Source of the DNA: Candidatus Levyibacteriota bacterium
GTDB lineage: Bacteria; Patescibacteriota; Microgenomatia; Levybacterales; UBA12049
Direction of reading: 5' to 3'
Assembly: GCA_016432345.1 (NCBI GenBank)
Contig: CP066685.1
Coordinates: 176,236 to 240,235 of the forward strand
Length of the DNA stretch: 64,000 nucleotides
Under the pieces are notes generated by a model. That model searched no databases and was not told where the DNA came from. It was given only the letters and a program-made list of their open reading frames with translations. This document shows positions 7,542-62,642 of this stretch, piece by piece (the first letter of the stretch is position 1; every line of letters starts with the position of its first letter). A program made the translations under genes and the position numbers.

Positions 7542-7587
7542 TCCATACTAGTATAACGCGTTTATTTCTGCTATACTACCATGACTT

Positions 7588-27125: not shown

Positions 27126-30100
27126 ATGCCAAAGCACAATACACAAAAAAATTTAAGACAAAACTGGGGAAGATCATACACCAAATTACCAAAGCTTGAT
27201 TTGCTCGCAATGCAGAAAGATTCATATGAGTGGTTTCAAGAAGTAGCAATTGGTGAGGTTTTAAAAGAAATTTCTCCCATAGATGATTTTACAGAAAAAA
27301 ATTGGAATCTGCATTTAGGAGAATATCGTTTTGGTAAAGTATCTACCACTCCACAAACAGCACTTGTTAAAGGTATTACATTTGATGCTCCTTTATATGT
27401 TAAAGCAACATTAACCAATAAAAAAACTGGCAAAACTCAAACTCAAGAAGTATTTTTAGGTGATATTCCTCAAATGACAACCAGCGGAACATTTATTGTT
27501 AATGGAATTGAAAGGGCAGTGGTAAATCAGTTAGTTCGTTCTCCAGGATCATTTTTTACTGCTATTTCAGATGCGGTTACGGGAAGACCATTATATGTGG
27601 CGGAGATTAGACCAACTCATGGATCATGGCTTGAGTTTGTAACAACACGGCACGACACAATAACAGTAAAAATAGATAGAAGGAGAAAATTTTTAGTCAG
27701 TACATTTCTTAGAGCAATTGGTTTATCCTCAAACGAGCAAATCCAGGGAAAATTCAAGGCAATTGAAGAGTTGGACAAGAACGGTTTTATTAAAAATACC
27801 CTTATGAAGGATGAAACAGCGAGTGAAACAGAAGCGCTTATTGAGATTTTTAGAAAGATGCATCCTGGAGAGCCAGTTGTTTTAGAAAAAGTAAAAGAAA
27901 ATTTTCACGGGTTATTCTTTAACAGCAGAAGATATGACATAGGTAAAGTTGGAAGATATAAAATGAATAAAAAACTTGATGAAGTTCCAGGTTTTACTAA
28001 ATCAGAAGAGTATGTATTAACAATAGATGATATTATTGGTACGATAAGTTATCTTATTTTGCTTACCCAGGGCATTGGAAATATTGATGATATAGATAGT
28101 TTAGCCAATAGACGGATTAGAAGAGTTGGGGAATTAGTGGCCACAACGGCATTTCGTGTTGGAATCTTGCGGCTTGAGCGAAGCATTAAAGAGAGAATGA
28201 GTCTTATTCAGCCAGATGTGCCTGTTGTTATTTCCAGTCTTATCAATGCCCGTCCAATTATGGCCTCGATTAACGAATTCTTCAGAACTTCGCAGCTTTC
28301 GACAATTCTTGATCAAACAAATCCTCTTTCAGAGATAGATAATCTTAATCGGCTTACTGTGATGGGAACAGGTGGTATATCACGAGAACGCGCTTCCTTT
28401 TCGATTCGTGATATTAATAGTTCTCAATACAGCAGAATTTGTCCAATTAGATCTCCCGAGGGGCCTAATATTGGTCTTGTTACCTATGTTACTTCATATG
28501 CAAGAGTTAATGAGCATGGATTTTTGGAAGCTCCATATAGAAAAGTTGTGCAAGAGAAAAGAGGAGCAAAAATAATCATTAAAGCAACAGATGAAATTGT
28601 TTATTTTGATGCCGACGATGAAAGACGTCATTACATTACCCATGCCATGGCGCTGGATGAAGATGGTCATATAAGCCAAGATCGCGTGCCAGCAAGATTT
28701 AATGGAGAGTTTTTGGAAATTGAAAAAGAGAAGATTGAATATGTTGATGTAACGCCTCGTCAGGTTGTTGGCAGCGCTGCATCCCTTATTCCGTTTATTG
28801 CGCACGATGAGGCAAACAGAGCTCTTATGGGAACACACATGCAGTGTCAGGCAGTACCGCTTGTTAAGCCACAGTCGCCTATTGTTGGAACTGGTATGGA
28901 AGCGACAATTGCTCAAGTTATGGGTCGGGTAGTAAAAGCGCCATTTGATGGCAAAGTAACCTTTGTTGATGCCACAAAGCTTGTTTTGGAAGGGCAAAAA
29001 GGAGAAAAAGCCACATTTCTTATTGATTCTTTTAAGCGAACGGCGCAAGCCACCTCTTATACACAAAAAGCCTCTGTTGCAGTTTTAGAAAGAGTGAAAA
29101 AGGGAGATGTGCTTATTGATGGACCAGCTGCCGAAAGTGGAGAGCTGGCGCTAGGTCAAAATTTGCTTATTGCCTACACATCGCTTGATGGTTTGGGGTA
29201 TGAAGATGCTATTGTTATTTCTGATCGGCTTGTTAGGGAAGATATTTTGTCGTCTATTCATATTGAAAAATATGAAGCATCGGTGGTTGAGACAAAATTA
29301 GGTCCAGAGGAGACAACGCAAGATATACCAAATGTTTCAGAAGAAGATTTGGCTAATTTAGATGAAGATGGTATTGTGGTAGTAGGCAGCGAAGTAAGTC
29401 CGGGAGATATCTTAGTTGGAAAGATTGCTCCTAAAGGAGAAACAGAGTTAACAGCAGAAGAAAGACTTCTTCGAGCTATTTTTGGAGAGCAGGCGCGGGA
29501 AGTTCGGGATACTAGCCTTCGCATACCGCATGGAGAACGGGGAACTGTTATAAGCGTACAAACACTTGATAGGAAACATGGAGATGAACTAGAACCAGGA
29601 ACAATTCGAAAAATTCTGGTTGAGGTGGCGCAATTTAGACATGTTGTTGTTGGAGATAAGCTTGCAGGACGGCATGGCAACAAAGGGGTTATCTCCAAAA
29701 TACTGCCTCGAGCTGATATGCCATTTCTTTCCGATGGAACCCCCGTTGATATTGTTATTTCTCCAATTTCAGTACTCGCCCGTATGAATTTAGGTCAGCT
29801 TTTGGAAGCGCATCTTGGTTTTGCCGCCCAGAAATTAAATACAAAAATAGCAGCGCCTGTTTTTGAGAACATTAGCGAAGAGAAAATTATTGAGTTGCTT
29901 AAAAAAGCTGATTTACCCATAAATGGAAAAGCAACTTTATACGATGGCAGAACAGGTCAAGCATACGAAAACCCTGTAGTTGTTGGTATTGAGTATATTA
30001 TGAAGCTTATTCACATGGTTGAGGACAAGACTCATGCGCGTTCAACTGGGCCATACTCGCTTGTTACACAACAGCCGCTCGGCGGAAAAGCTCAAATGGG

Positions 30101-30503
30101 AGGACAGCGCTTAGGGGAAATGGAGGTATGGGCGCTTGAGTCGCATAGAGCGCGGTATGTCTTGCAGGAAATGTTAACTATTAAGTCCGATGATATTGTC
30201 GGTCGCGCCAAAGCATTTGAAGCAATTGTGAAAGGCGTGGATATTCCAACTCCTAAAGTGCCAGAATCCTTTAAAGTTCTTATTAAAGAGCTTCAGGCTT
30301 TAGGACTTAATGTTGTACCAGAGGGAGCAATGATTCAGCCGCAACTGCAAGTAATTGAAACTGCAGAAAGTTTACCAAAAGATTTAGGAGAGGAGAAATT
30401 TGAAAAAGAGGCAAAAGAGCTTCAAGAGACACTTGGAGGAGAAGAAATTGCCTTAGAAAGCGAAGGAATGCATGTTGGAGACACAGGGGAGAAGAAGCTA
30501 TGA
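27126..30503 (+). CDS. rpoB: DNA-directed RNA polymerase subunit beta
   Basis: Conserved RpoB blocks run throughout (GTFIVNGIERAVVNQLVRSPG, GRHGNKGVISKI, MNLGQ). Confidence 0.99.
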   Translation: MPKHNTQKNLRQNWGRSYTKLPKLDLLAMQKDSYEWFQEVAIGEVLKEISPIDDFTEKNWNLHLGEYRFGKVSTTPQTALVKGITFDAPLYVKATLTNKKTGKTQTQEVFLGDIPQMTTSGTFIVNGIERAVVNQLVRSPGSFFTAISDAVTGRPLYVAEIRPTHGSWLEFVTTRHDTITVKIDRRRKFLVSTFLRAIGLSSNEQIQGKFKAIEELDKNGFIKNTLMKDETASETEALIEIFRKMHPGEPVVLEKVKENFHGLFFNSRRYDIGKVGRYKMNKKLDEVPGFTKSEEYVLTIDDIIGTISYLILLTQGIGNIDDIDSLANRRIRRVGELVATTAFRVGILRLERSIKERMSLIQPDVPVVISSLINARPIMASINEFFRTSQLSTILDQTNPLSEIDNLNRLTVMGTGGISRERASFSIRDINSSQYSRICPIRSPEGPNIGLVTYVTSYARVNEHGFLEAPYRKVVQEKRGAKIIIKATDEIVYFDADDERRHYITHAMALDEDGHISQDRVPARFNGEFLEIEKEKIEYVDVTPRQVVGSAASLIPFIAHDEANRALMGTHMQCQAVPLVKPQSPIVGTGMEATIAQVMGRVVKAPFDGKVTFVDATKLVLEGQKGEKATFLIDSFKRTAQATSYTQKASVAVLERVKKGDVLIDGPAAESGELALGQNLLIAYTSLDGLGYEDAIVISDRLVREDILSSIHIEKYEASVVETKLGPEETTQDIPNVSEEDLANLDEDGIVVVGSEVSPGDILVGKIAPKGETELTAEERLLRAIFGEQAREVRDTSLRIPHGERGTVISVQTLDRKHGDELEPGTIRKILVEVAQFRHVVVGDKLAGRHGNKGVISKILPRADMPFLSDGTPVDIVISPISVLARMNLGQLLEAHLGFAAQKLNTKIAAPVFENISEEKIIELLKKADLPINGKATLYDGRTGQAYENPVVVGIEYIMKLIHMVEDKTHARSTGPYSLVTQQPLGGKAQMGGQRLGEMEVWALESHRARYVLQEMLTIKSDDIVGRAKAFEAIVKGVDIPTPKVPESFKVLIKELQALGLNVVPEGAMIQPQLQVIETAESLPKDLGEEKFEKEAKELQETLGGEEIALESEGMHVGDTGEKKL

Positions 30504-33500
30504 TTCAAGATAAAAACAAAAAATTAAAAGATCAGACAATTATTGATTTTAAGTCGCTAAAAATTCTTTTAGCAAATAAAGACGATATACTTTCGTGGTC
30601 ATATGGCGAAATAACCAAGCCTGAAACAATTAATTACAGAACGCTTCGTCCAGAAAAAGATGGACTTTTTGATGAGCGAATTTTTGGCCCAACCAAAGAC
30701 TGGGAATGTTATTGCGGAAAATACAAAAGAATTAGATACAAAGGAATTGTTTGTGATAAATGTGGTGTAGAAGTAACTTTATCGCGTGTCAGACGAGAGA
30801 GAATGGGTCATATTGCTTTAGCGTGTCCAGTTGGTCATGTCTGGTTTTTCAAAGGTCCCTCATCCCCTTTGTCTCTTATTTTAGACATTCCGCAAAAAAG
30901 TCTTGAATCAGTTATTTACTACGCATCATATCTTGTTATTGGTATTGATGATAAGAAGAAAGAGGATAGTTTGCAAAAATTTGCGAAAGTAATGGAGGAA
31001 AGACATAAAAAATTGAAAGAAGAGACAGAAATAGAGCAAAAAAGAATAGAGCAAGATACAGAAGAGAGAAAAAAAGGAACAAAAGGTAAGAAAACCGCTC
31101 CAGAACAGCGAGATCTTATTTTGTCAGAGCTTGATTTACAAAAAAGGCAAAAAGCTGCAGCGTTGGAGAAGAAATTCGAGGAAGAAAGCAGTAAAATTAC
31201 AGAAATTGGCGATGCATTAGCAAAGCTCATAAAAAGTCTTAGAGTAGGCAGTGTGCTTTCTGAAGAGGAATACTTTAAATTTCTTGAATACGATATTCCA
31301 ATTTTCTTCACCATGCAAACCGGCGCAGAAGGGTTGTATGCGCTTTTGGATAAACTTGATTTATCAGCTCTGATTGCCGATTTGCGAGAAGAGGCAGAAA
31401 AGTCATCTGGCGCAAGATATCTAAAGATTATTAAAAGGCTGAGGCTTATTGAGGCAATGCGCAAGGCAAATATTACTTCCTCCTCCATGATTTTAACTAT
31501 GTTGCCAGTTATTCCACCAGACCTTCGTCCAATGGTGCAGCTAGTTGGTGGCCGTTTTGCTACATCAGATTTAAATGATTTATACAGAAGAATTATTAAT
31601 AGAAACAGCCGTCTTAAGCATCTGATGCTTCTTGGCGCGCCAGAGATAATTCTTAGAAATGAAAAACGCATGCTCCAAGAGTCTGTTGATTCGCTTATTG
31701 ATGCGTCGCAAAGAAATCAAGTTGTTTCCGCGCCGCTTCGATCGCTTTCTGATATGCTTAGGGGTAAGCAAGGAAGATTTAGACAAAATCTTTTGGGAAA
31801 ACGTGTTGATTATTCGGGAAGATCTGTTATTGTGGTTGGTCCGCAGCTTCGTTTAACCCAGTGCGGGTTGCCAAAAGAAATGGCTTTGGAAATGTTTAAG
31901 CCATTTGTTTTGCGGGAAGTTATTATTCAAAACCTGGCGCCGAACATAAAAAGCGCCAAGCGATATATCGAAAAACGGCCGCCACAGGTATTTGATATTT
32001 TAGAAGAAATAACAAAAAACCATCCAGTTCTTCTTAACCGCGCTCCTACTCTTCATAAGCTTGGTATTCAAGCATTTTATCCTGTGCTTATTGAGGGATC
32101 GGCTATTCAGCTTCATCCATGTGTTTGCGCTGGATACAATGCGGATTTTGATGGCGACCAGATGGCTGTACATATTCCTCTTTCTCAAAATGCGCAGGAA
32201 GAAGCAATAAGATTAATGATGCCATCTAACAATTTGTTAAAACCTGCAGATGGTAGTCCAATTACTTTGCCAAATAAAGAAATGGCTGTTGGAATATTTT
32301 ATTTAACAGCCATGGATAATAATTTAAGAAAGGATATTTTACCAACATTTGCAAATATTAACGAAGCTGTACTTGCATATTCGCTGGAAAAGTTAAAACT
32401 AAAACAACCAATTAGCGTGCGGATAGAGGATAAAGGAGAGGAAAAAATAATTGAAACAACAGTGGGGAGATTGATGTTTAATGAACGGCTTCCCAAAAAG
32501 ATCGGTTTTGTTAATGATGCAGTAAAAGCCTCTGGCATAAACAAAATTATTCGTAAGGCGCTGTCGGTATGTACCCCAGAAGAAACAGCAAAACTTATAG
32601 ACGATATTAAAGATTTGGGATTTATTGCTGTAACTCTTTCTGGCATTTCCGTGTCTGTTTTTGACAACCAAATGGTTGAGGAAAAAGATGAGCTTATCAA
32701 AGAAGCAGAAAATAAAATTACCAAAATTGAACATGAATACCAAAAGGGACTTATCACAAGCGATGAAAAAAAGAGATTATCAAACGACGTATGGCTTAAA
32801 ACAACAGATAAGATTGCAGATTTAACATGGAATAGTTTAAAAACTGCAAACATGATTAAAACTATTATTGATTCAGAAGGAGCTCGCGCTGGAAAAGAAC
32901 AGCTAAAACAGCTTTCGGCAATGAGAGGTCTTATTCTTGATCCGTTGGGAAAGATTGTTGAACTTCCGATTAAATCAAACTTTAGAGAGGGATTGTCTAT
33001 TTTTGAGTATGTAGCATCAGCTAGAGGTTCGCGAAAAGGATTAACTGATTCAGCGCTTAAAACTGCCAATGCCGGATATTTAACCCGCAGACTTGTTGAT
33101 GTGGCGCACGATGTGTTGATTAAGGAAGAAGATTGTCAAGCAACAGATGGAACACTTATTTCTGCAAAAGATGATAGAACAGCTTCTTTTGCGAGCAGAA
33201 TTATTGGCAGAACCTCTTTGCAAAAAGTTGTTTCCAAAAAAACAAAAAAAACAATTCTTGATGCTGGAGAAGAAATTACCGAAGAAAGAGCGCATCAGCT
33301 TTTAGAAAACGATATTGCAGAAATTTCTGTTAGATCAGTTCTTTATTGCAATCTTTCTTATGGAGTTTGCGCTAACTGCTACGGGTGGGATTTTGCCACT
33401 CGAAAGAAAGTGCAATCTGGTGTTCCTGTAGGTGTCATTGGCGCCCAATCAATTGGAGAGCCTGGTACACAGCTAACTATGCGTGTTAGACACTTTGGAG

Positions 33501-34225
33501 GAGTTGTTATGTCTGATGTTACACAAGGATTGCCAAGAATCGAAGAGCTTTTTGAAATGCGAACACCCAAAAACTTCTCTCCAATTTCCGAGATCACTGG
33601 TAAAGTAAGCATAGAAACATCGGACGATGGGTATATTATTCGTGTTAAAAACACCCGTATGAAACCAGTTGAAGAAAAAGAATACTTTGTGCCGCTTGCT
33701 ACATCGCTTCTTGTTTCTGATGGAGATGAAATTGTTGCTGGAACACAATTTGCCCAAGGCTATCTTGATCCAAAAGAAGTTCTTCGGGTTAAAGGGCATA
33801 TTCAGACACAAAGACATATTATTGATGAAGCGCAAAAAGTATATGAATCGCAAGGAATTACTATTAACGATAAGCATTTTGAGGTGATTCTTCGAAAGAT
33901 GTCCGACAAAATTATTGTTGAAACGGTTGGAGATACTAGTTTTGTTCCAGGAGATTTTATTACAAATACGCGATTTGAAGAGGTTAACGCGGAAGTAATA
34001 GCCCAAGGCGGAGAGCCAGCAACAGGCAGAAGAGTGATTTTAGGAATCACAAAAGCAGCGTTATTCTCGGATTCATGGCTTTCTGCCGCATCATTCCAAG
34101 AAACAACAAAAGTCTTAACAGACGCAGCGCTTGAAGGGAGAGAAGATAAGCTTGTTGGACTTAAAGAAAACGTTATTATTGGTCGGCTTATCCCCGTTGA
34201 AGGAAAGGCTACACCTTTGGTATAA
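30500..34225 (+). CDS. rpoC: DNA-directed RNA polymerase subunit beta'
   Basis: It has a zinc-binding N-terminus ([15 protein letters not shown]) and the NADFDGDQM catalytic motif. It overlaps rpoB through an ATGA junction. Confidence 0.99.
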
Positions 34226-34775: not shown

Positions 34776-35249
34776 ATGAGACATAAAAAAGTTGTAAAAA
34801 GAGAAACAAATACAGATCCAGTTTATAATAGTAAGTTAGTAGCGAAATTTATTAATAATATTATGATCGCTGGTAAAAAGACCGCTGCCCAGAAGACTTT
34901 TTATAATGCGTTGGTTATTCTTGAAAGCAAGGGTCAAGTGCCTTTGGAGGCTTTTGAAAAAGCAATTCAAACTGTGGGGCCAAGAGTAGAAGTGAAAGCC
35001 AGACGAGTAGGCGGAGCAAATTATCAAGTGCCGGCAGAAGTTAGGGGAGAGCGAAAAACTTCTTTAGCAATTCGTTGGATAATAGATGCTGCAAAAGCAA
35101 GGCCAAGCGCGCAGTTTCATACATTCGCCGAAAAGCTTGCAGCAGAGTTGTTAGACGTGCTGCAAAATCAAGGAGCAGCAATCAAAAAGCGAGATACAGT
35201 CCTTCGCATGGCCGAAGCCAACAAAGCCTTCGCCCATTTCCGTTGGTAA
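34776..35249 (+). CDS. rpsG: 30S ribosomal protein S7
   Basis: Typical S7 sequence (DPVYNS.LV.KFIN..M..GKK..A). Confidence 0.97.
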   Translation: MRHKKVVKRETNTDPVYNSKLVAKFINNIMIAGKKTAAQKTFYNALVILESKGQVPLEAFEKAIQTVGPRVEVKARRVGGANYQVPAEVRGERKTSLAIRWIIDAAKARPSAQFHTFAEKLAAELLDVLQNQGAAIKKRDTVLRMAEANKAFAHFRW

Positions 35250-35383
35250 TTCTGTCGATGTTATTTAAATGACCATTGGCTGCATGCAAACTTCCTCTTG
35301 CAAATCGTCTAATTTTCGTCTATCCCTAAGAACGATTTTGCGAATCATTATTATTTGATAATACTCTATGTTACATATAACTA

Positions 35384-35412
35384 TTGACTTCTTGCTTAAT
35401 GTAGTATAAAAT
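35384..35412 (+). promoter_or_regulatory. Putative fic promoter TTGACT-17-TAAAAT, 8 nt before the ATG
   Basis: Hexamers and spacing were read directly. The arrangement implies a leaderless or near-leaderless mRNA. Confidence 0.4.
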
Positions 35413-35420
35413 AGCCTTGT

Positions 35421-36362
35421 ATGGATGATAGATTACTTAAGTTACAGGCTAAAAAACAACGTCTAGATAGCTATAAACCACTCCGAAACGAACTTATTAA
35501 AAACCTGGAGGAATGGTTTCGGATAGAATTAACCTATACCTCCAATGCCATAGAAGGTAATACTTTAACCCGGCAAGAAACTGCTATGGTGGTAGAAGAA
35601 GGCATTACTGTTAAAGGTAAAAGTTTGACAGAGCATCAGGAAGCAATCAGTCATGCAGAAGCTTTTGATTATATTCAAACCCTCGTTAATAAAAAAAGGC
35701 AAGAATTAACAACTAAAGATATTTTAGATATTCATAGCATTATCCTAAATAAAATCGATGACACAAATAAAGGTAAATACCGAACAGTAGCCGTGCGGCT
35801 TAGAGGCTCGGAAACAATCTTACCAAATCCTCTAAAAGTATCGGAATTAATGGACGAGTTTATAACCTGGTTAAAAAGTGATATTTCTGATCACCCTGTT
35901 AAAATTGCTATCGATGCCCATTATAAATTAGTAAGTATTCATCCTTTTGTTGACGGTAATGGGAGAACCGCACGATTGTTAATGAACTTACTTTTAATGC
36001 AATCAGGTTATCCTTCTGCCATAGTTCGCAAAGAGGATCGTAGCGAGTACATCAATTCTTTAGAAAAAGGTCAAACCAAAAATGATACAGATGACTATGA
36101 CACTTTAATGCTTGAAGCAGTAGATCACTCTTTGGATATTTATCTTGAGGCAGTCGAACCAGAAAAAGTAAGTGCAGAAGAACCAACACTAGATCAGCGT
36201 TTTTACACAACAGATGAGGTGGCAAAGCTTCTGCAGGTTGATCCAGAAAGTGTTAGAAGATACGTAAGACGTGGAGATTTAAAAGCTGTTAAGCTTGGAG
36301 GAAAATTTATTAGAATTGATAAAACTGATTTAGAAAAATTTATTGAATCTCTTAAGAGTTAA
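35421..36362 (+). CDS. Fic-domain protein (class II, internal inhibitory motif) fused to a C-terminal excisionase/MerR-type HTH
   Basis: The Fic motif HPFVDGNGRTAR lies at aa 174-185. The inhibitory-helix motif SNAIEG ([ST]xxxE[GN]) lies at aa 41-46. The C-terminal FYTTDEVAKLLQVDPESVRRYVRRGDLKAVKLGGKFIRIDKTDLEKFI is an excisionase-family HTH. Confidence 0.88.
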   Translation: MDDRLLKLQAKKQRLDSYKPLRNELIKNLEEWFRIELTYTSNAIEGNTLTRQETAMVVEEGITVKGKSLTEHQEAISHAEAFDYIQTLVNKKRQELTTKDILDIHSIILNKIDDTNKGKYRTVAVRLRGSETILPNPLKVSELMDEFITWLKSDISDHPVKIAIDAHYKLVSIHPFVDGNGRTARLLMNLLLMQSGYPSAIVRKEDRSEYINSLEKGQTKNDTDDYDTLMLEAVDHSLDIYLEAVEPEKVSAEEPTLDQRFYTTDEVAKLLQVDPESVRRYVRRGDLKAVKLGGKFIRIDKTDLEKFIESLKS

Positions 36363-36381
36363 TCTTAGTTGATAAAATCAT

Positions 36382-36663
36382 TTAGATATTCTTTATAGCG
36401 AAGTTTTGGAAGAGAGTACTTAGCATTAGAGCATCTTCTGCTACTCTTTCAGATGTACCTGTAATCATTTTTTTCATATACAAAAGTAGCTTTTTAAGGT
36501 AATTATTTGGATTAAGATTTTCTAATTCTGCTGCTCTTTGAAAAGCTTCTTCTCTAAATCTATTTGCCATGTTAAAAGAACCTCTATGTAAACCCAAAGC
36601 AACTCTTTTCAGATCCATAGCTAAAGATTCAATAATTATTTTCTGACTTAATTTATCATTCAT
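36382..36663 (-). CDS. Hypothetical alpha-helical protein (93 aa)
   Basis: The ORF is visibly AT-rich and starts 7 nt downstream of the previous minus-strand gene. No family recognised. Confidence 0.45.
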   Translation of the reverse strand: MNDKLSQKIIIESLAMDLKRVALGLHRGSFNMANRFREEAFQRAAELENLNPNNYLKKLLLYMKKMITGTSERVAEDALMLSTLFQNFAIKNI

Positions 36664-36670
36664 ATTAATA

Positions 36671-37009
36671 TTATATAACTTTTTGGAAAAAATATTCGGT
36701 TAATTCTTCATATTTTTTTCTAATTTCTGGATTCTGAATTTCATTACTAGTATTATTATCGCCTGGTCTGATATTGATAAAAGAATTAAAATCTATAACT
36801 TTAGTTTCTAAATCTATTCCTCCACCCCAAATGTTAGATTGTTTAGAGTCTTCTTTAAGAAGAATTTGTTCTCCTTCAAAATGTCTATCTATACCAGCTG
36901 AACAAACTTTTCTATTGATATCTATGACAGTTTTAATATAAGGATCAAATTGTTCTTTAAGTTTTTCAATTTCTTCTAAAGTAAATGGTGAAGATTTAGT
37001 AAGAAGCAT
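36671..37009 (-). CDS. Hypothetical protein (112 aa), possibly DUF5674-like
   Basis: The pattern VIDINRKV...GIDRHFEGEQILLKEDSKQSNIWGGGI...FNSFINIRPGDNN resembles my recollection of DUF5674. This has not been verified by any search. Confidence 0.45.
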   Translation of the reverse strand: MLLTKSSPFTLEEIEKLKEQFDPYIKTVIDINRKVCSAGIDRHFEGEQILLKEDSKQSNIWGGGIDLETKVIDFNSFINIRPGDNNTSNEIQNPEIRKKYEELTEYFFQKVI

Positions 37010-37042
37010 AGAAATATTTTATCATCTATCTATGGCAGGAAA

Positions 37043-37681
37043 TTACTGGATTGTAATGCCGAGGATTTTGTCACCAATCTCCATCTTTTTAACTACATCC
37101 ATCCCTTTAGTTACAATGCCAAAGTTAGTGTATTTACCATTTAGCCAAGAAGCATCCTGTTTGGCAATAAAAAACTGAGCGTCGTTTTGTACTTTTCCAT
37201 CACCTTTACTCGCAACACCAACCGATCCTTCAACAAAAGGTTTGTCGTTAAATTCAACAGGCATATTTCCGCCGCCTGTACCATCGCCTTTTGGATCTCC
37301 ACCTTGTACCACCCAATCTTCAACTCTATGGAATAAAAGATTGTTGTAAAATCCGCTAGAGGCTTTTTTGATAAAGTTAAACACAGTATTTGGAGAATCA
37401 CTGGTATAAAAAGACATAGTAATATCGCCTTTTGTAGTTTTTATAACTGCTGATTTTGAAGCCATATCAGAAATAAATTGTTCAGCACTTATTGTAGCAA
37501 CAGTAGGTGTTGGGATACTAGAGGTGATTGTGTTAGTTGGAATAATAGTGGCTGGAATTGATGTTGGTATAGCTGTGGGTATAATTATTGCTGTTTTTGT
37601 TTCGTCATTTTTATTTGCGAAAAACAATAAGCCTAGAAATCCTATGATTACAACTGAAACAAAAAGAAAAATCTTGCCCAT
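37043..37681 (-). CDS. Membrane-anchored cyclophilin-type peptidyl-prolyl cis-trans isomerase
   Basis: The core reads FHRVEDWVVQGGDP.GDGTGG...NDAQFFI...WLNGKYTNFG. It has an N-terminal TM helix and a T/P/I-rich linker. The ATG at 37681 (MGKIFLF) is preferred over the one at 37702. Confidence 0.85.
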   Translation of the reverse strand: MGKIFLFVSVVIIGFLGLLFFANKNDETKTAIIIPTAIPTSIPATIIPTNTITSSIPTPTVATISAEQFISDMASKSAVIKTTKGDITMSFYTSDSPNTVFNFIKKASSGFYNNLLFHRVEDWVVQGGDPKGDGTGGGNMPVEFNDKPFVEGSVGVASKGDGKVQNDAQFFIAKQDASWLNGKYTNFGIVTKGMDVVKKMEIGDKILGITIQ

Positions 37682-37716
37682 ATGCGAAAAGCATTGTAGC
37701 ACAAGATAAAAAAGTA

Positions 37717-37725
37717 TGCTATACT
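37717..37725 (+). promoter_or_regulatory. Extended -10 box TGCTATACT upstream of fusA
   Basis: Read directly. It lies in the divergent ppiase-fusA spacer. Confidence 0.4.
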
Positions 37726-37733
37726 ATTTTGAT

Positions 37734-37760
37734 AAATTCGCGAGCGAATTTTTGTTTTTT
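37734..37760 (+). promoter_or_regulatory. Perfect palindromic hairpin AAATTCGC-GA-GCGAATTT plus a T-rich tract abutting the fusA ATG
   Basis: The stem spans 37734-37751 and TTGTTTTTT runs to 37760. No Shine-Dalgarno is present. Confidence 0.5.
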
Positions 37761-39878
37761 ATGGCTGATCAAAAATCACGTCTTACAGAATTAGACAAAA
37801 TTAGAAATATTGGTATTATTGCTCATATTGACGCGGGAAAAACTACTACTACCGAGCGTATTTTGTACTATACAGGCAAAACCTACAAAATTGGTGATAT
37901 TGACGAGGGAAATACCCAAATGGACTGGATGGAACAAGAGCGCGAGCGTGGTATTACTATTGTTTCTGCTGCCACCACCGCTTTTTGGAAGGATTACAGA
38001 ATTAATATTATCGATACTCCAGGCCACGTTGATTTTACTGCAGAAGTAGAGCGCTCGCTTCGCGTTTTGGACGGCGGTATTACGGTACTTGATGCCGAAG
38101 AAGGCGTGCAATCGCAATCCGAAACTGTGTGGCGCCAGGCTGACAAATACAAAGTTCCTCGTATTTGTTTTGTCAATAAAATGGACAAACTTGGGGCAGA
38201 TTTTTTGGCCACTGTCAAAAGTATCGAAGATCGGCTGGGAGCAAATCCAGCTATTATGGTGTTGCCAATTGGCCGCGAACAAGAATTTAAGGGTATTTTT
38301 GAACTTCTTACTATGAAATCTATAGTTTGGGGTGGTGAGGAGCTTGGGGCAAAGTTTACAGTAACTGATGACATTCCTGATACAATGGAAGCCGAGATTA
38401 AAGAATATCGAAATAAACTCATCGAAAAAATTGCCGAAACAGATGATGCTCTTCTTGAAAAATATCTTAGTGGAACAGAGCCAACAGTTGACGAGCTTAA
38501 AAAGGCGCTACGAAGGGCAGTTATTGCATACAAATTAGTCCCAATTTATGCAGGGTCAAGTTTGCGCAATAAAGGTGTTCAGCCGCTACTTGACGCAGTG
38601 ATAGATTATCTTCCATCACCTGTTGATTTAAAAGAAGTTAAAGGACTTAATCCAAAAACAAATCAAGAAGAGTTGAGAAAACTTATTGTTGAAGAGTCGC
38701 TTTCGGGGCTTGCTTTTAAGATTCAAAATGATCCGCATGTGGGGAAGCTTACTTACTATCGTGTTTATTCAGGAAAGATCGAGGCAGGATCGTATATTTA
38801 TAATAGTACCAAAAATATTCGAGAGCGGGTTGGCCGACTTCTCCTTATGCATGCCAATCAACGAGAAGAAATTAAAGAGGGATACGCTGGAGAAATTGTG
38901 GCAGTTGTTGGACTTAAAGATACTACTACAGGAGATACTCTTTGTAATGAAGGGAAACCGATAGTTTTGGAGAAAATTTCTTTCCCAGAACCGGTTATTT
39001 CCTTAGCTATTGAACCCAAAACAAAATCGGACCAGGAAAAACTGGGGTTTGCCTTAAAAAGACTTATGGATGAAGATCCAACATTTCAGGTTAAAGCCAA
39101 TCACGAAACAGGTCAAACGATTATTTCGGGTGTTGGCGAATTACAACTGGAAATTATGGTTGATCGCATGAAGCGAGAATTTAATGTTTTGGCAAATGTG
39201 GGAGCGCCGCAAGTGGCCTATAAAGAGACAGTTTCCAAAATGGCCGAAGCAGAAGGAAAGTATATTCGCCAATCTGGAGGCCGCGGGCAGTATGGACATT
39301 GTTTCCTTCGTGTCGATCCAAAACCGCGGGGAGAAGGGTTTGAATTTGTGGATGCGATTAAAGGCGGCGCAATTCCTGCTGAATTTATAAAATCTGTTGA
39401 GAAAGGCGTTAAAGAAACCATGGAGAATGGTATTCTTTTGGGGTACCCAATGGTTGATATGACAGTAACATTATATGATGGAAGTTTTCACGATGTTGAT
39501 TCATCCGACATTGCTTTTAAGATTGCCGCATCGCAAGCACTTCAGGCTGCCACCAAAAAAGCAGACCTAACACTGTTGGAGCCAATCATGAAGGTTGAGG
39601 TTACAACACCTTCTGAATTTATGGGCGATGTAATTGGTGATTTGTCTGCCAAACGGGCGCAAATTTTAGGGACGGAAGAAAAGCATAAAGCAACAATTGT
39701 CATGGTGATGGTGCCACTGGCTGAACTTTCTGGTTACGCCACAACGCTTCGTTCTATGTCGCAAGGCAGAGCAAGTTACTACATGGAGCCGTCGCATTAC
39801 GAAGAAGTGCCGCGAAACATTGTTGAAGCCATGCTGGCAAAATCCACCTTCACCGGCCGCATCTCCGCCCAGCAGTAA
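37761..39878 (+). CDS. fusA: Elongation factor G
   Basis: Begins [35 protein letters not shown] and contains DTPGHVDF. The track's start at 37716 is rejected. Confidence 0.98.
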
Positions 39879-39922: not shown

Positions 39923-41557
39923 GTGATTGTGCTTTTGTTTTTTGCTTTTCTGGCCGGACTTACCACCATTTTGGCTCCGTGTATTTGGCCGCTTCTACCA
40001 ATCATTCTTTCTTCTTCAACAACAGGCGGACACCGGAAACCGCTTGGGATAACGCTTGGCATTATTGTTAGCTTCTCTATTTTTACATTAAGTATTTCCT
40101 ATTTGGTTATGCTGTTTCATTTTGACCCCAATATTTTGAGAATAATTGCCGCCATAACCATTGCATTTTTAGGTTTGACCATGATTGTTCCGGCACTACT
40201 TATTCGTTACGAATCGCTTATTACCAAACTAAGCAGCTTTATCGGTGGAAGGCCAATTGCCAGTCACCATGGTTTTTTCGGCGGGTTTATCACCGGTCTT
40301 TCACTTGGCATTATTTGGTCTCCTTGCGCCGGGCCAATTTTGGCAACCATCGCGGCGCTGGGCGCAACGCAGGCGGTAAATTTTCAGGTTGTGCTTGTGG
40401 CTATTGCATATGGTTTTGGTGTTGGTATCCCGCTTTTTTTATTTTCATTTCTGGGAACGTGGCTTTTTCAAAAAAGCAGATTTATATCCGCATACACAAG
40501 TCATGTACAAAAATTATTTGGTGTTATTACTATTCTTACGGCAATTGCCATTTATACAAATTACGACAAAGTTATTCAATTAAAACTTCTTAGCGCGTTT
40601 CCAACATACACAACATTTACAAATAAGCTTGAAGGTAACGACAAAGTAAAAGAGCAGCTTGGTATTTTAAAAGGCGAAAAAACCAAAACCCCAGGTATTA
40701 AAAAGATACTTAAGTCTTCATCTTTATCCAATTATGGCCGCGCCCCGGAGTTTGTTGGAATTTCCAACTGGATTGGTTCGAAACCTTTAACAATGCAGGA
40801 ATTAAAAGGGAAAGTAGTTTTAATAGATTTTTGGACATACACGTGTATTAATTGCATCCGGACACTGCCGTATGTAACCAGCTGGTACGAGAAATATAAA
40901 GATAAAGGATTTATGGTTATTGGCGTACATACGCCGGAATTTGAGTTTGAGAAGAAAACAGAGAATGTAGAAAATGCAATAAAAATGTATAACATTACTT
41001 ATCCAGTTGCTCAAGACAATAATTATGCCATCTGGCAGGCATATAACAATCAATACTGGCCGGCGAAATATCTTATTGATGCCAATGGGAATATTCGTTA
41101 TACCCATTTTGGTGAAGGAAAATACGAAGAAACAGAAAAAGCCATTCAGGCGCTTCTTGAAGAAGCAGGTAGAAAAGTAGATGGGAAAGTAGTAAAAGTA
41201 GAAGATCAAACACCAAAAACAAGACTTACTCCAGAAACATATCTTGGCAAAAAGCGAGGAGACGGATCGGTTATGTTTAAAGGTTCGTGGGATATTTTAG
41301 ACGAACAAGCAGTGGCTTCAAAAGGTTCGATTCTCGAGTTACGTTTTTACGCTAATAAAGTGTTTTTGGTGGTAACACCTGCGACACAAAAAGATCGGGC
41401 AAAAATTTTTCTTGATGATAAGTTAATTGGAGAAATGGTGTTCGATGTGGCAAAACTTTATGAACTGGTTGATCTAAAGGGGAATATAGGAGATCACATC
41501 TTGCGGATAGAATTTGAGCAAAACGGCACCGCTGTCTACGCCTTTACGTTTGGCTGA
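39923..41557 (+). CDS. DipZ-like protein: CcdA/DsbD-type membrane domain fused to a thioredoxin-like domain (CINC) and a C-terminal beta domain
   Basis: The TM cysteines are LAPCIWP and SPCAGPIL. The thioredoxin-fold segment is VLIDFWTYTCINCIRTLP. The overall architecture matches mycobacterial DipZ. It has a GTG start. Confidence 0.75.
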   Translation: MIVLLFFAFLAGLTTILAPCIWPLLPIILSSSTTGGHRKPLGITLGIIVSFSIFTLSISYLVMLFHFDPNILRIIAAITIAFLGLTMIVPALLIRYESLITKLSSFIGGRPIASHHGFFGGFITGLSLGIIWSPCAGPILATIAALGATQAVNFQVVLVAIAYGFGVGIPLFLFSFLGTWLFQKSRFISAYTSHVQKLFGVITILTAIAIYTNYDKVIQLKLLSAFPTYTTFTNKLEGNDKVKEQLGILKGEKTKTPGIKKILKSSSLSNYGRAPEFVGISNWIGSKPLTMQELKGKVVLIDFWTYTCINCIRTLPYVTSWYEKYKDKGFMVIGVHTPEFEFEKKTENVENAIKMYNITYPVAQDNNYAIWQAYNNQYWPAKYLIDANGNIRYTHFGEGKYEETEKAIQALLEEAGRKVDGKVVKVEDQTPKTRLTPETYLGKKRGDGSVMFKGSWDILDEQAVASKGSILELRFYANKVFLVVTPATQKDRAKIFLDDKLIGEMVFDVAKLYELVDLKGNIGDHILRIEFEQNGTAVYAFTFG

Positions 41558-41559
41558 CC

Positions 41560-41568
41560 TGGTATAAT
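41560..41568 (+). promoter_or_regulatory. Extended -10 box TGGTATAAT 6 nt before the GTG of the GH18-like gene
   Basis: Read directly. It overlaps the 3' end region of the dipZ-like gene. Confidence 0.4.
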
Positions 41569-41574
41569 CACAGG

Positions 41575-42639
41575 GTGAAAAAGTTAGGTATTTTGATTGT
41601 TTGCTTCTTTGTTGTTGGTATATTTTTTTTTCTCCAAAAGAAAGAAAACAAGACACAGCAGGTTTTGCCGGCATCAGATAGTATTGTTCCTACGAAGATC
41701 CCGAAACAAGTTCGGGATGACAAGGGTCAGGAAAAAAAGTTTCTGTTTGTGCCGTACTGGGGACAAACACAAGATAAAATACCCAATGAGTTTGGCGATA
41801 TGCTTATTTATTTTGGTATTACTCCAAGCAAAGATGGAATTGATACTCAAGAGCCTGGATTTTTGGGTTTGGGTAGGTTTGTGGGGATTTCGGAAGGAAG
41901 AAAAACATTATTAACGATTCGCATGATGGATCAAGACACAAATTTTGCGATTATTAAAGATAAAAAGCAGCAAGAAAAAATTATGACACAAGCAATAGTT
42001 ATAGCAAAACAAAAAGGTTTTTCGGGCATTGTTTTGGATTTAGAGATTAGCAGTCTGCCTTTTGCAACGGTAACTGACCAGATGAATAAGTTTGTTTCGG
42101 ACTTTTCGAAGTCTGCAAAAAAAAATAACTTAACATTTTCCATGATGTTTTTTGGCGACACGTTTTTCAAGCTTCGGCCATACGATGTTACCGTATTACG
42201 GCAGTATCTCGATACTGTTTTTGTGATGGCGTACGATTTTAGTAAGGTAAAAGGCGATCCAGGGCCTAATTTTCCCTTTCCCGAGTTTACTCTTATGGTG
42301 CAAGATTTTTTAAATATTGTGCCAAAAGAAAAATTGGTGATTGTTTTTGGCATGTTTGGGTACGATTGGCAAGTTGATACTGATGGAAAGTCAGTTGGCC
42401 AAGCAAGGGCGGTAACAACAACAGTTGCCAAAAAACAATTTGTCAATCAATGTTTGTTCAAAAAATGTGATGTAAAGCGAGATAAAGTATCGGCAGAGAC
42501 AACGATTACATATATCGATAATCAAGGAAATAATCATATTGTGTGGTTTGAAGATGAAGAATCAGTGGCTAAAAAGAGTGAATTTTTAAAAGAAAAAGGA
42601 ATAAAAAATGTGGGGTATTGGGCATACTCATACTTTTAA
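41575..42639 (+). CDS. Glycoside hydrolase family 18-like protein (membrane anchored)
   Basis: It has an N-terminal TM helix. The segment GFSGIVLDLE corresponds to the GH18 DxxDxDxE region and is partly degenerate. The C-terminal GIKNVGYWAYSY is typical of GH18 barrels. Confidence 0.6.
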   Translation: MKKLGILIVCFFVVGIFFFLQKKENKTQQVLPASDSIVPTKIPKQVRDDKGQEKKFLFVPYWGQTQDKIPNEFGDMLIYFGITPSKDGIDTQEPGFLGLGRFVGISEGRKTLLTIRMMDQDTNFAIIKDKKQQEKIMTQAIVIAKQKGFSGIVLDLEISSLPFATVTDQMNKFVSDFSKSAKKNNLTFSMMFFGDTFFKLRPYDVTVLRQYLDTVFVMAYDFSKVKGDPGPNFPFPEFTLMVQDFLNIVPKEKLVIVFGMFGYDWQVDTDGKSVGQARAVTTTVAKKQFVNQCLFKKCDVKRDKVSAETTITYIDNQGNNHIVWFEDEESVAKKSEFLKEKGIKNVGYWAYSYF

Positions 42640-43392
42640 GAGGTATGGGGTTTTGTGTTTATATTCGTTTTCTTTGACTCGTTTAATAATTTTTTCTGCA
42701 TTTGATAATCCCTTTTTGATAATTTCCTCAAGGCTTAATTTATGTTCAAGATAGTAGTAAAGTACCTGGTCGGCTTCTTGGTAGGTAAAACCAAATTCTC
42801 CTTCGTCGGTTTGGTTTTCCCATAGATTTGCTGTTGGTTTGGCATTGATAATCTCATCTGGAACGCCAAGATATTTTGCCAATTCAATAATTTGGGTTTT
42901 ATATAAATGTTGGATTGGTTCTATATCAGATGCCCCGTCTCCAAAGCGGGTGAAATAACCAAGGAGATGTTCTGATTTATTTTCGGTTCCAACAACCATG
43001 GCATTATGTTTTTTTGCCAGGTCAAAAAGAAAAGTCATGCGAACCCGCGCCATAACATTGCCGCTGCGTATTGTGTTAAGGTGCGACCTTAACACAAGGT
43101 CGCACCTTTTACGAAATACATCAACTACTTGTTTTATAGAAATCTCAAAAACATTTTCTTTTGGAATGATTGTTGTTATTTGTTTAAATAGGGAAAATGT
43201 TGATGGATAATACGGAAGGTGGGCTACAAAAATATTTTCTGGTTGTAAAGTTTTTTTTAGCAAATAAAAACTAACTGCAGAATCTATACCGCCAGAAAGA
43301 CCAACAACGGCGTTTTTGATTCCTTGTTTTTCAAAAGTTGTTTTTAAAAACGAAACAATTTTTTTGCTTTGGGTTTTTGGATCAATTTTCAT
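42628..43392 (-). CDS. nadE: NH3-dependent NAD+ synthetase
   Basis: It has the PP-loop motif GLSGGIDS and a typical NadE C-terminal region. Its 3' end overlaps the convergent GH18-like gene by 12 nt. Confidence 0.88.
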   Translation of the reverse strand: MKIDPKTQSKKIVSFLKTTFEKQGIKNAVVGLSGGIDSAVSFYLLKKTLQPENIFVAHLPYYPSTFSLFKQITTIIPKENVFEISIKQVVDVFRKRCDLVLRSHLNTIRSGNVMARVRMTFLFDLAKKHNAMVVGTENKSEHLLGYFTRFGDGASDIEPIQHLYKTQIIELAKYLGVPDEIINAKPTANLWENQTDEGEFGFTYQEADQVLYYYLEHKLSLEEIIKKGLSNAEKIIKRVKENEYKHKTPYLLKV

Positions 43393-43955
43393 GTGTACAG
43401 TTTATGTTTTACAATATAGTCTTCCACCTCTTTGGGAACAAGACAGGTAATAGGTAAGTTTTTTTTTACTCTATTACGAATTATTGTTGATGAAAGATTT
43501 GTTGTGATAAGATCATGTCCCAAAACAGTCTCAAAACCATTAGGTAGTGTTTTGGGAGGCAAAAGCGGATCCCGCGGAAATACCAGGAATGTTGTTAAGT
43601 TTATTAACTCTTCTGCTCTTTCCCATCGCGTAAACTCCGAAAGAATATCGCTTCCGACAATCCAATAGAGTGTATGATTAAAACTTTTTTTAATTTCTTG
43701 GATGGTATCAATTGTGTAGCTTATTCCTTTTTTGTTGATTTCTATATCCAAAATTTTTATGCGGCTATCAGCAAAGGCGCTTAACATGTTTATGCGATCT
43801 TTGCCGTTTGCAATAATTGGTTTCCATTGATGTTTGTATGCCGGAACAAACCAAACTTCTTTAATATCTGGTCTTTTTTCCAAAATCTGCGTAGCAACAA
43901 GATAGTGTCCAATATGAGGCGGATCAAATCGGCCGCCAAATAAAGCAATTTTCAT
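43389..43955 (-). CDS. nadD: Nicotinate-nucleotide adenylyltransferase
   Basis: Begins MKIALFGGRFDPPHIGH and contains an ISSTIIR-like motif (LSSTIIRNR). The internal ATG at 43955 is preferred because the track's extension covers the tuf promoter. Confidence 0.88.
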   Translation of the reverse strand: MKIALFGGRFDPPHIGHYLVATQILEKRPDIKEVWFVPAYKHQWKPIIANGKDRINMLSAFADSRIKILDIEINKKGISYTIDTIQEIKKSFNHTLYWIVGSDILSEFTRWERAEELINLTTFLVFPRDPLLPPKTLPNGFETVLGHDLITTNLSSTIIRNRVKKNLPITCLVPKEVEDYIVKHKLYT

Positions 43956-43986
43956 AACAGATGGTAAGATTGTAGCAAATTGGGTA

Positions 43987-44015
43987 TTGACGAGCAAGGA
44001 AAAATATTGTAAGAT
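43987..44015 (+). promoter_or_regulatory. Sigma70-like promoter TTGACG-17-TAAGAT for tuf
   Basis: Hexamers and the 17-nt spacer were read directly. Confidence 0.5.
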
Positions 44016-44022
44016 TATTTTT

Positions 44023-44054
44023 AACCTCAAAAGTTGAGGTTTTATTATTTTCTT
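44023..44054 (+). promoter_or_regulatory. 8-bp hairpin AACCTCAA-AAG-TTGAGGTT at the predicted tuf 5' end, followed by a T-rich tract
   Basis: The stem pairs 44023-44030 with 44034-44041 and is followed by TTATTATTTTCTT. No Shine-Dalgarno precedes the ATG at 44063. Confidence 0.5.
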
Positions 44055-44062
44055 ACAAATTT

Positions 44063-45250
44063 ATGGCAGACGTAAAGAAATTCGAGAGAAACAAACCGCA
44101 TATTAATATTGGTACCATTGGTCATGTTGATCATGGCAAGACCACCACCACCGCTGCAATTGCCACTGTTCTTTCTAAAAAAGGTCTAGCCCAGGCTAAA
44201 AAATACGAAGATATTGATAATGCTCCAGAAGAAAAAGCCCGTGGAGTTACCATTAACATTTCTCATATCGAATATGAAACAGACAAAAGACATTATGCTC
44301 ACATTGATGCTCCAGGCCACGCCGATTACATTAAAAACATGATTACAGGAGCAGCCCAAATGGATGGAGCAATTTTAGTGGTGTCGGCGCCAGATGGTCC
44401 AATGCCTCAAACTCGCGAGCACATTCTTTTAGCTCGCCAGGTTGGAGTGCCTTCAATTGTTGTCTATCTTAACAAGTGTGATATGGTGCAAGACGCAGAG
44501 CTTTTGGATTTAGTTGAAATGGAAGTAAGAGAACTTTTGACCAAATATCAATATCCAGGAGCTGATGTACCAATTATTCGTGGTTCGTCTTTAAAAGCAC
44601 TCGAAGGTGATGCAGAATATGAGAAAAAGATCATGGAACTTATGGATGCAGTGGATTCTTATATCCCAACACCAAAGCGCGATATTGACAAGCCATTTAT
44701 GATGGCTGTTGAGGACGTATTCTCTATTAAAGGCCGCGGAACAGTTGTTACAGGACGCGTTGAGCGAGGTCAAGTAAAAGTTAATGAAACAGTTGAAATC
44801 GTGGGAATTAGACCAACTAAGTCAACGGTTGTTACCGGTGTTGAGATGTTTCGAAAACAGCTTGATGAAGCGCAGGCAGGAGACAATGTTGGATTACTCC
44901 TTCGCGGTATCGAAAAAGACGATGTCGAACGGGGACAGGTTATTGCCAAGCCAGGCAGTATTACTCCGCACACAGAATTTGAGGCAGAAGTATATATTTT
45001 AACCAAAGAAGAAGGTGGACGCCATACACCATTTTTTACAGGATATCGTCCACAATTTTATATTCGGACAACCGATGTTACAGCCGAAGTTGCGCTTCCA
45101 CAAGGTGTTGAAATGGTGATGCCGGGAGACAGTACCAAAATGACAGTTAAACTTATAAATCCAATTGCTCTTGAAGAAGGGTTGAGGTTTGCGGTTCGCG
45201 AAGGCGGTAAAACAGTTGGAGCTGGAGTAATTAGTAAAATTCTTAAATAG
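44063..45250 (+). CDS. tuf: Elongation factor Tu
   Basis: Contains [17 protein letters not shown] and NKCD. Full length at 395 aa. Confidence 0.99.
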
Positions 45251-62566: not shown

Positions 62567-62569
62567 AAG

Positions 62570-62642
62570 TCAGGGTGGGCAGATTTGAACTGCCGACTTC
62601 TGGACCCCCAGCCCAGCGTTCTACCAACTGAACTACACCCTG
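62570..62642 (-). tRNA. tRNA-Pro (anticodon GGG), no encoded CCA
   Basis: A manual cloverleaf was drawn on the reverse complement: acceptor CAGGGTG/CACCCTG (C1-G72, A73), D arm GTTC-AGTTGGTA-GAAC, anticodon arm CTGGG-CTGGGGG-TCCAG (anticodon GGG, G37), and T arm GGCAG-TTCAAAT-CTGCC. Confidence 0.88.

Follow-up and report, generated by a model that had tools for sequence, protein, structure and literature searches.

How does a gene for a Fic protein fused to a domain of the helix-turn-helix (HTH) type come to lie inside the str string of a bacterium, and does its place beside the gene for elongation factor G (EF-G) carry any meaning? The question is raised by a 64-kb stretch of DNA (hereafter the window; GC content 37.8%) from Candidatus Levyibacteriota, an ultra-small member of the Microgenomates group of the Candidate Phyla Radiation (CPR); a protein 100% identical to its Fic protein is assigned to this phylum by the source. 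Here rpsG (34776-35249, forward strand; ribosomal protein S7, Pfam Ribosomal_S7 E=1.5e-52) and fusA (37716-39878, forward; Pfam EF-G domains) border a gap of 2466 bp that holds four genes: the Fic-HTH gene (35421-36362, forward; 313 amino acids, aa), followed on the reverse strand by orf93 (36382-36663; 93 aa, no Pfam match), a DUF5674 gene (36671-37009; 112 aa) and the gene for a cyclophilin-type peptidyl-prolyl isomerase with a hydrophobic segment at its N-terminus (37043-37702; Pfam Pro_isomerase E=9e-32). An original prediction described this layout, with a split of about 2.5 kb holding a Fic gene, two small open reading frames (ORFs) and an opposite-strand cyclophilin, and the coordinates confirm it; the same gene order is also present in four independent assemblies from different sequencing runs (L001-L004), and consequently the arrangement is not an assembly artefact or chimera. 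We favour, with a probability of roughly 0.7, the explanation that the str string was ancestrally broken, and that the slot in the window holds two self-promoted units relocated into it without a recognisable mobile element, their adjacency to fusA being incidental.

The first line of evidence comes from the same gap in related genomes. We searched for homologous proteins and then took the contigs encoding them, and compared five Levybacteria relatives (L131, L132, L133, L140 and L141) with S7 proteins 69-86% identical to that of the window. An opposite-strand cyclophilin gene lies in the rpsG-fusA gap in all five, and it is therefore a gap resident that is ancestral in the lineage. The cargo flanking it varies by genome: after rpsG, L131 has the cyclophilin, orf159 and fusA, L140 the cyclophilin, orf182 and fusA, and L141 the cyclophilin, a PNPOx gene, a reverse-strand DUF6899 gene and fusA, while in L132 orf186, and in L133 the reverse-strand orf307, precede the cyclophilin. 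The scanned cargo ORFs of L131, L132 and L133 have no significant Pfam family. None of these five relatives has Fic, orf93 or DUF5674 in the slot, which in the window strain is filled by them. The original prediction of an insertion into the str operon thus holds in one part, as these three genes are extra relative to all related genomes examined, but not in the other, as the string was already split by the cyclophilin. The outcome named as refuting it, an ancient arrangement, is borne out for the cyclophilin; Fic and the DUF5674 pair are found here in the window strain alone. In Nomurabacteria, another CPR group, rpsL-rpsG-fusA is contiguous at L070, the sole useful locus among the rpsG matches listed.

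The str string has a second break, between fusA and tuf, which is typical of the lineage. In the window, four genes within 39923-44030 separate the two (a DsbD_TM-redoxin fusion, GH18, and nadE and nadD on the reverse strand), and the link is interrupted in all three relatives where the stretch is seen, with GH18 always among the interrupting genes: fusA is followed by Trx, DsbD-Trx, HicBA, GH18, a reverse-strand nadD-like gene and tuf in L131, by GH18, nadE and nadD (both reverse) and tuf in L140, and by further genes including GH18 in L141. The HicB/HicA pair of L131 (15425-15946, between DsbD-Trx and GH18) is another sign of these gaps collecting small autonomous modules. In L132, the final 17 nt of rpsG (CCCACTTCCGCTGGTAA) are repeated at 9507-9523, 33 nt past the real stop codon, possibly as the scar of a recombination at this 3' end; the window contains no such duplicate. 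We propose that the cyclophilin sits between rpsG and fusA by ancestry, with variable slots on either side of it, and that the slot used in the window, which extends from rpsG to where the cyclophilin gene has its 3' end, would have received two independent units with their own promoters, probably through ordinary gene relocation in a rearrangement-prone genome.

If the str gap were the proper place of the Fic gene, its orthologues should keep similar company. More than 120 clusters of homologues (77-92% identity) were found, almost every one 313 aa in length and all consisting of a Fic and an HTH_17 domain, and we examined 24 orthologous loci besides the window (L086-L106, L126, L127 and L129; 69-91% identity). 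None of the 24 has rpsG, fusA or tuf within its sequenced flanks, and the loci have almost no neighbours in common. Many of the orthologues are embedded in a dispersed cluster of tRNA genes, Leu(taa)-Pro(tgg)-Gly(tcc)-Arg(tct)-His(gtg), often with one of these 70-300 nt upstream of them (L086-L103, e.g. L091 6844-6927, L092 2246-2320, L095 6670-6742 and L099 5030-11419); GIY-YIG genes and small unknown genes are interspersed in these clusters. Furthermore, three distantly related loci have typA (BipA) at a distance of 3-5 kb from Fic (L088 1-1146, L105 871-2682 and L126 3178-4953); for a single-copy gene, chance would give roughly 0.2 such cases in the 13 loci whose upstream flank is long enough, and this proximity is probably leftover ancestral synteny. 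The window contains no typA, and its sole tRNA gene (tRNA-Pro(GGG), 62569-62642; also the only match in an Rfam scan of the whole window) is 26 kb from Fic, so the position of Fic in the window is derived.

These loci also bear on a functional reading of the position, under which a translational GTPase (EF-Tu, EF-G or TypA) is the substrate of the Fic protein, whose gene is co-regulated with fusA. Such a target has precedents, as Doc phosphorylates EF-Tu. SoFic, a class II Fic protein with a DNA-binding domain, AMPylates EF-Tu at its switch I and inhibits translation (bioRxiv 10.64898/2026.07.09.737422). However, SoFic is a distant relative of the window protein (E=2e-6 in the PDB search; 41.6 bits against a cut-off of 550 for NF046030), and the three loci with typA nearby, which could be taken to favour the same reading, have it several unrelated genes away and in either orientation, which leftover synteny fits better than an operon. 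In the window, the Fic gene has its own conserved promoter, and three opposite-strand genes stand between it and fusA. With rpsG, fusA and tuf missing from the sequenced flanks of all 24 other loci, the link to the EF-G and EF-Tu genes that had earlier seemed provocative has no support from synteny, and we regard a functional role of the position as distinctly unlikely. Given the SoFic result, EF-Tu as a target is biochemically conceivable; it is only the argument from position that is weak.

The Fic gene itself shows signs of age. Most orthologues are 80-84% identical to the window copy, close to the values for the RNA polymerase subunits relative to L131 and L132 (86-89%); between the window and L131, S7 is 75% identical, RpoC 86%, RpoB 89% and EF-G 92%. 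Among orthologues whose proteins are 80-84% identical, four-fold degenerate sites agree at only 0.35-0.48; on the same contigs, nadD is 59% and nadE 50-55% identical, versus 82% for Fic. Synonymous sites this near to saturation, combined with high protein identity, indicate an old and strongly constrained gene, not a recent sweep.

A second line of evidence is that each unit seems to bring its own promoter. The 72 nt upstream of the Fic start codon are conserved in 22 loci, while the sequence farther upstream and past the stop codon is unrelated; the consensus of the block is ...ACTAT..AATACTACTTtATAATACAT..(6-7)..TTGACA-(17)-TAAAAT-AGTGTTAT-ATG. In the window this promoter and candidate operator block (35349-35420, forward) comprises the direct half-sites ATAATAC (35358-35364; half-site A) and ATGTTAC (35368-35374; half-site B), the -35 element TTGACT (35384-35389), the inverted half-site GTAGTAT (35401-35407; half-site C), which abuts the -10, and the -10 element TAAAAT (35407-35412), at a spacing of 17 from the -35 and 8 nt before the ATG. 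Promoter-like matches in the region are at chance level (10, compared with 11.8 expected), but TTGACT-17-TAAAAT (35384-35412), already noted as a promoter-like element of the gene, can be taken as real because it is kept in 22 orthologous loci. As only 8 nt separate the -10 from the ATG, with no room for a Shine-Dalgarno sequence, the Fic mRNA is probably leaderless, and the first unit would be this monocistronic gene.

The same block suggests how the gene may be controlled. GTAGTAT at the -10 is an inverted copy of ATACTAC upstream of the -35. Half-site C, when reverse-complemented, agrees with half-site A at 5-7 of 7 positions in all but one of the 22 loci (perfectly in eight; at 4 of 7 in L104). 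The first copy is followed, with a period of 10 nt, by another in direct orientation (ATAATAC). The two arms are altered together in L097 and L098, to ACGCTAC and GTAGCGT, such that a perfect inverted repeat is kept; this counts as a single event. ATAnTAC x2 ... GTAGTAT is the obvious candidate binding site for the HTH_17 domain; acting as a repressor, the Fic protein would bind these repeats, which bracket its own -35 and -10. A regulon search of the window with the operator 8-mer GTAGTATA gave two matches, where 0.86 were expected and 22 of 100 shuffles reach two. The second of these matches (7572-7579) lies inside a 46-nt spacer (7542-7587) between the divergent genes DUF2207 (reverse) and nusA (forward); the spacer contains GTAGTATA ... 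TATACTAG, an inverted repeat that shares the core of the Fic operator and probably represents two divergent -10 boxes.

Between rpsG and this block is a spacer (35250-35348) that is not kept in relatives when flanks are compared; its segment 35327-35337 (TAAGAACGATT) is common only to the two closest Fic loci, L126 and L127. The hairpin reported after rpsG (first given as 35300-35341; here 35298-35343) is weak and not significant, having a folding energy of -8.9 kcal/mol (z=-1.5), no run of T and a stability equalled by 21 of 200 shuffles, and no terminator-like sites were found in 34.7-37.9 kb.

The second unit would be an operon of DUF5674 and orf93, the product of the latter predicted to form a four-helix bundle. 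The two had been described as small genes of unknown kind, and the 112-aa one is now matched to DUF5674 (PF18924; 70 bits against a cut-off of 27). This family comprises more than 120 clusters at 71-86% identity, in genomes named Levy-, Davies- and Pacebacteria, with invariant polar residues in segments such as CSAG.DRH.EGE, WGGG.D.ET and DFNSFINIRP.DNN.SNEIQ. In five of five genomes the DUF5674 gene is followed by a co-directional ORF of about 90 aa, with flanks that are all different (window 36382-37024, reverse; L129 12634-13247; L134 6001-6628; L135 6001-6660; L139 6001-6608). The orf93 family, for which there is no Pfam model, has 167 clusters (50% identity level) at E<0.001, all of about 90 aa. 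In the window an extended -10 element (TGATAAAAT; 37016-37024, reverse) ends 6 nt before the DUF5674 start codon, and TGnTAnAAT stands exactly 6 nt before the start codon in all five genomes despite their unrelated flanks; it is probably a leaderless promoter serving the pair. In the genome to which L126 and L134 belong, some 290 kb lie between Fic and the pair, while in L129 the two are within 2 kb of each other, and this varying distance indicates that they are independent units.

Modelling with AlphaFold2 gave a predicted structure for DUF5674 with a confidence score (pLDDT) of 86.8 and no match in the PDB (best E-value 1.1), while the orf93 model (pLDDT 96.3) has only generic FliS-like fold matches. 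A HEPN-MNT or other toxin-antitoxin assignment for the pair was rejected. A HEPN-MNT system would join a nucleotidyltransferase fold to a HEPN protein with a conserved Rx4-6H motif, but there are no Pfam, NCBIfam or PADLOC matches to such systems, the His of 'RVALGLH' is not conserved, and the structural models provide no more than the generic helical bundle of orf93. A literature search for DUF5674 found no paper mentioning it. The sole DUF5674 match in a viral collection (IMG/VR) is at L142 (3727-5339), at the very end of the contig next to a tyrosine integrase, and is most likely the host flank of a provirus.

In composition, the two units differ. The Fic gene is native (GC 35.4%, z=-0.5), while in a profile of the 64 genes of the window DUF5674 has the lowest GC of all (26.0%, z=-2.9; GC at third codon positions 10.6%, z=-3.8), and orf93 is also AT-rich (29.4%, z=-2.0), as had been noted. 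The GC content of the pair is consistently below that of its host genome, by 4-8 points elsewhere and by about 10 in the window, and this very low GC suggests that it arrived more recently, possibly from a lower-GC relative. There is no integrase or transposase among the genes of 34.7-38 kb, and direct or inverted repeats that might serve as element ends occur only as chance-level matches, in agreement with the earlier observation that none were visible. An integrative element or genomic island would be recognised by such genes, by repeats or by a duplicated end, none of which the locus has, and the only GC outlier in it is the DUF5674 pair. Moreover, scanning viral contigs with patterns from the window Fic protein found no relative, and a phage collection has none above 40% identity. 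From these comparisons neither Fic nor the DUF5674 pair looks foreign or mobile; both appear to be conserved Levybacteria/Microgenomates genes sited elsewhere in other genomes.

The main competitor at this point is the view that the locus is a piece of a mobile or defence island, in which a SoFic-type abortive-infection Fic protein and an AT-rich accessory pair integrated at a hot spot and the integrase has since been lost. Some Fic loci do have the expected surroundings: the L126 orthologue is beside AAA_15/21, HTH_3, integrase, HEPN_AbiU2 and SIR2 genes, L129 has both Fic and the pair near resolvase, Replic_Relax and KAP-NTPase genes, and many orthologues are just downstream of tRNA genes. 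The protein also matches the PADLOC SoFic model (E=3.7e-35, covering only model positions 29-271 of 361) and PDC-S04 (4e-34), and the strong GC deviation of the pair and the L142 copy beside an integrase could be read the same way. However, the window region is free of integrase, transposase, repeats and a duplicated rpsG end, the separation of Fic and the pair by about 290 kb in another genome argues that they are not one unit, and the viral and phage searches are negative for Fic. Its native GC and its saturated synonymous sites at 80-90% protein identity are the opposite of the rapid turnover of defence genes. We therefore consider an island origin unlikely.

Several observations nevertheless weigh against our preferred explanation of a relocation of two self-promoted units. 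The setting of L126, amongst defence-like genes and an integrase, and the match to the PADLOC model for SoFic, a candidate defence gene, have already been mentioned, and nothing at the locus records how the genes came into the slot. For the closest orthologues (90-91% identity), four-fold-site identity is 0.59-0.65, and although no S7 protein above 86% identity was found, several Fic proteins have 90-92%; Fic may have undergone repeated horizontal transfer within the phylum. As regards self-regulation, GTAGTAT abuts the -10 and could belong to the promoter rather than to an operator, and the half-sites are 43 bp apart centre to centre, which is wider than in CccR (a Fic protein considered below) and unusual for a simple dimer. 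Additionally, the upstream half-site B of the window is degenerate (ATGTTAC), and for this reason the full ATACTAC-N30-40-GTAGTAT pattern is missing from the window.

In the protein encoded by the first unit, residues 96-192 match Pfam Fic (PF02661; 87.1 bits against a cut-off of 24), placing it in the Fic/Fido superfamily, and residues 261-310 (nt 36201-36350) match HTH_17 (PF12728; 58.5 bits against 27), with the excisionase profile TIGR01764 (NCBIfam) matching the same C-terminal domain (41.5 bits against 28.8). The Fic motif HPFVDGNGRTAR (residues 174-185, nt 35940-35975) fits HxFx(D/E)GNGRxxR. The inhibitory motif SNAIEG (residues 41-46, nt 35541-35558) provides the intramolecular (S/T)xxxE(G/N) helix, N-terminal of the Fic core, that defines class II. 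The description of a class II Fic protein with both motifs, fused to an excisionase-type HTH, is thereby borne out by profiles above their cut-offs. Among 34 homologues, down to 42% identity, the segment T40-L49 is invariant save for A43 (at least 90% conserved), as are H174, P175, F176, D178, G179, N180, G181, R182, A184 and R185 of the Fic motif, only V177 and T183 varying. On this pattern of conservation we infer an AMPylation-competent class II enzyme, with Glu45 as the inhibitory and His174 as the catalytic residue.

A sequence search of solved structures ranks human FICD first (E=6e-46; 226 residues aligned at 42% identity), followed by C. elegans FIC-1, BtFic and CdFic, with SoFic marginal at the E-value given above. 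S41-N-A-I-E45-G46 aligns with T-V-A-I-E234-G of FICD, and identical residues occupy the positions of E234 (E45), H363 (H174), and the dimer-relay or interface positions K256 (K67) and L258 (L69). In more distant homologues (46-55% identity) a MerR_1 HTH replaces HTH_17, and one homologue has no HTH. Fic-only 'HYPE-like' relatives (48-50% identity) are encoded on Francisella and Clostridium botulinum plasmids, and a Chlorohelix plasmid protein aligns with the window Fic through residue 296. From the Fic-only and MerR_1 relatives it follows that the FICD-type core is widespread in bacteria and that what sets the present protein apart is its being fused to an HTH of the MerR/excisionase type. Three loci have, immediately next to the Fic-HTH gene, a second paralogue that consists of Fic only (27-30% identity; L096 1872-2747, L097 3110-3736 and L099 5774-6232).

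Assignment to better known families was attempted and failed in each case. The Doc toxin profile (TIGR01550) scores 24.8 bits against a cut-off of 38.65 and VbhT 15.1 against 800; the SoFic family profile, as stated, falls far below its cut-off, and the C-terminus is HTH_17 and not the SoFic-type winged helix (IPR048770); FICD/HYPE proper is rejected since Pfam finds no TPR (tetratricopeptide repeat) or other N-terminal domain and the alignment is restricted to the Fic domain. The failed SoFic profile, the lack of the FICD TPR domain and anchor, and the different HTH class together set the Fic-HTH protein apart from both SoFic and FICD. A literature search combining Fic, AMPylation and CPR found no paper. 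The failure to match Doc and VbhT also affects the idea that the protein is the toxin of a FicTA-type toxin-antitoxin module, for which its Fic/Doc family membership, the weak Doc and VbhT matches themselves and an HTH capable of the autoregulation typical of toxin-antitoxin loci might be cited. In class I FicTA systems the inhibitory helix comes from a separate small antitoxin gene, whereas here it (S41-G46) sits in the same polypeptide, as in class II; no small co-directional ORF lies before or after Fic, and no small protein with an (S/T)xxxE(G/N) helix was found encoded nearby. We consider this alternative highly improbable.

How might such a protein act? As an enzyme, it would carry out reversible AMPylation of a conserved cellular protein, with Glu45 holding it in a de-AMPylating or inhibited state and oligomerisation or DNA binding serving as the switch. 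A more ambitious reading, which we offer tentatively and consider rather unlikely as a whole, is that Fic-HTH is a near-universal, vertically inherited core regulator of Levybacteria, which links the binding of its promoter, and possibly of other promoters, with a FICD-like switch that adds AMP to a central housekeeping protein (EF-Tu, TypA or DnaK, for example) or removes it, as a one-protein brake on growth or translation; DUF5674 and orf93 would separately be a Microgenomates-wide two-protein system with a new fold. Were this so, minimal, episymbiotic cells would possess a growth or translation brake made of a single protein.

In genome scans, a broken str operon in CPR bacteria or Levybacteria should be taken as a trait of the lineage and not as a sign of recent invasion, and functional coupling should not be concluded from gene adjacency there. 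As regards Fic proteins, the locus points to a branch of the 'Fic enzyme plus DNA-binding domain' theme that is uncharacterised and conserved to an unusual degree; its FICD-type core, its HTH of the excisionase/MerR type and a conserved candidate operator with sharp limits, about 72 nt long, make both autoregulation and an AMPylation switch directly testable. DUF5674 and orf93 form a conserved, self-promoted module, and the predicted fold of DUF5674 is without a solved-structure match.

Compared with the canonical str operon (rpsL-rpsG-fusA-tuf), the window retains the usual order on the same strand, with rpoB (27126-30503), rpoC (30500-34225), rpsL (ending at 34706) and rpsG upstream and tuf (44063-45250), rpsJ and the S10 genes downstream, but differs by the splits at rpsG/fusA and fusA/tuf. 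The start of fusA is more probably the ATG at 37761, from which the 705-aa orthologue of L131 aligns (MADQKSRL...), and gene callers place the cyclophilin start at 37681 (212 aa); with these starts, the choice of which is uncertain, the two genes would be separated by a divergent promoter region of about 80 nt instead of 13 nt.

Among Fic proteins, the closest solved relative is FICD (HYPE), the metazoan AMPylase/deAMPylase of BiP in the endoplasmic reticulum. The window protein resembles it in the inhibitory Glu, the catalytic His and the equivalents of K256 and L258, but FICD has a TPR domain and a membrane anchor, both absent from the window protein, which has the HTH in their place. As FICD recognises BiP through the TPR domain, its target is not transferable to the window protein by homology.

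The nearest functional parallels are bacterial Fic proteins that bind DNA. CccR represses its own promoter through inverted repeats 26 bp apart near the -35 and -10, and AMPylates FtsZ (PMC9755527); its operator, AGATAATCAT-N26-ATGATAATCT at the -35/-10, is similar to the candidate operator of Fic-HTH. In CbFic2, DNA binding through the C-terminal HTH, together with dimerisation, switches the enzyme between AMPylation and de-AMPylation (PMC10628234), while SoFic binds its own promoter and has a dimerisation-dependent AMPylation activity (bioRxiv 10.64898/2026.07.09.737422). In contrast to the window protein, with its excisionase/MerR-type HTH_17, all three carry a SoFic/DeoR-type winged helix; the window protein also lacks an N-terminal DUF4172/Fic_N-type domain, and SoFic is only marginally similar in sequence to the FICD-type core found here. 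The host differs too, being in this case an uncultured CPR bacterium. By analogy, Fic-HTH plausibly works like SoFic, CbFic2 and CccR, as a self-repressing, reversible AMPylase that employs a different DNA-binding domain.

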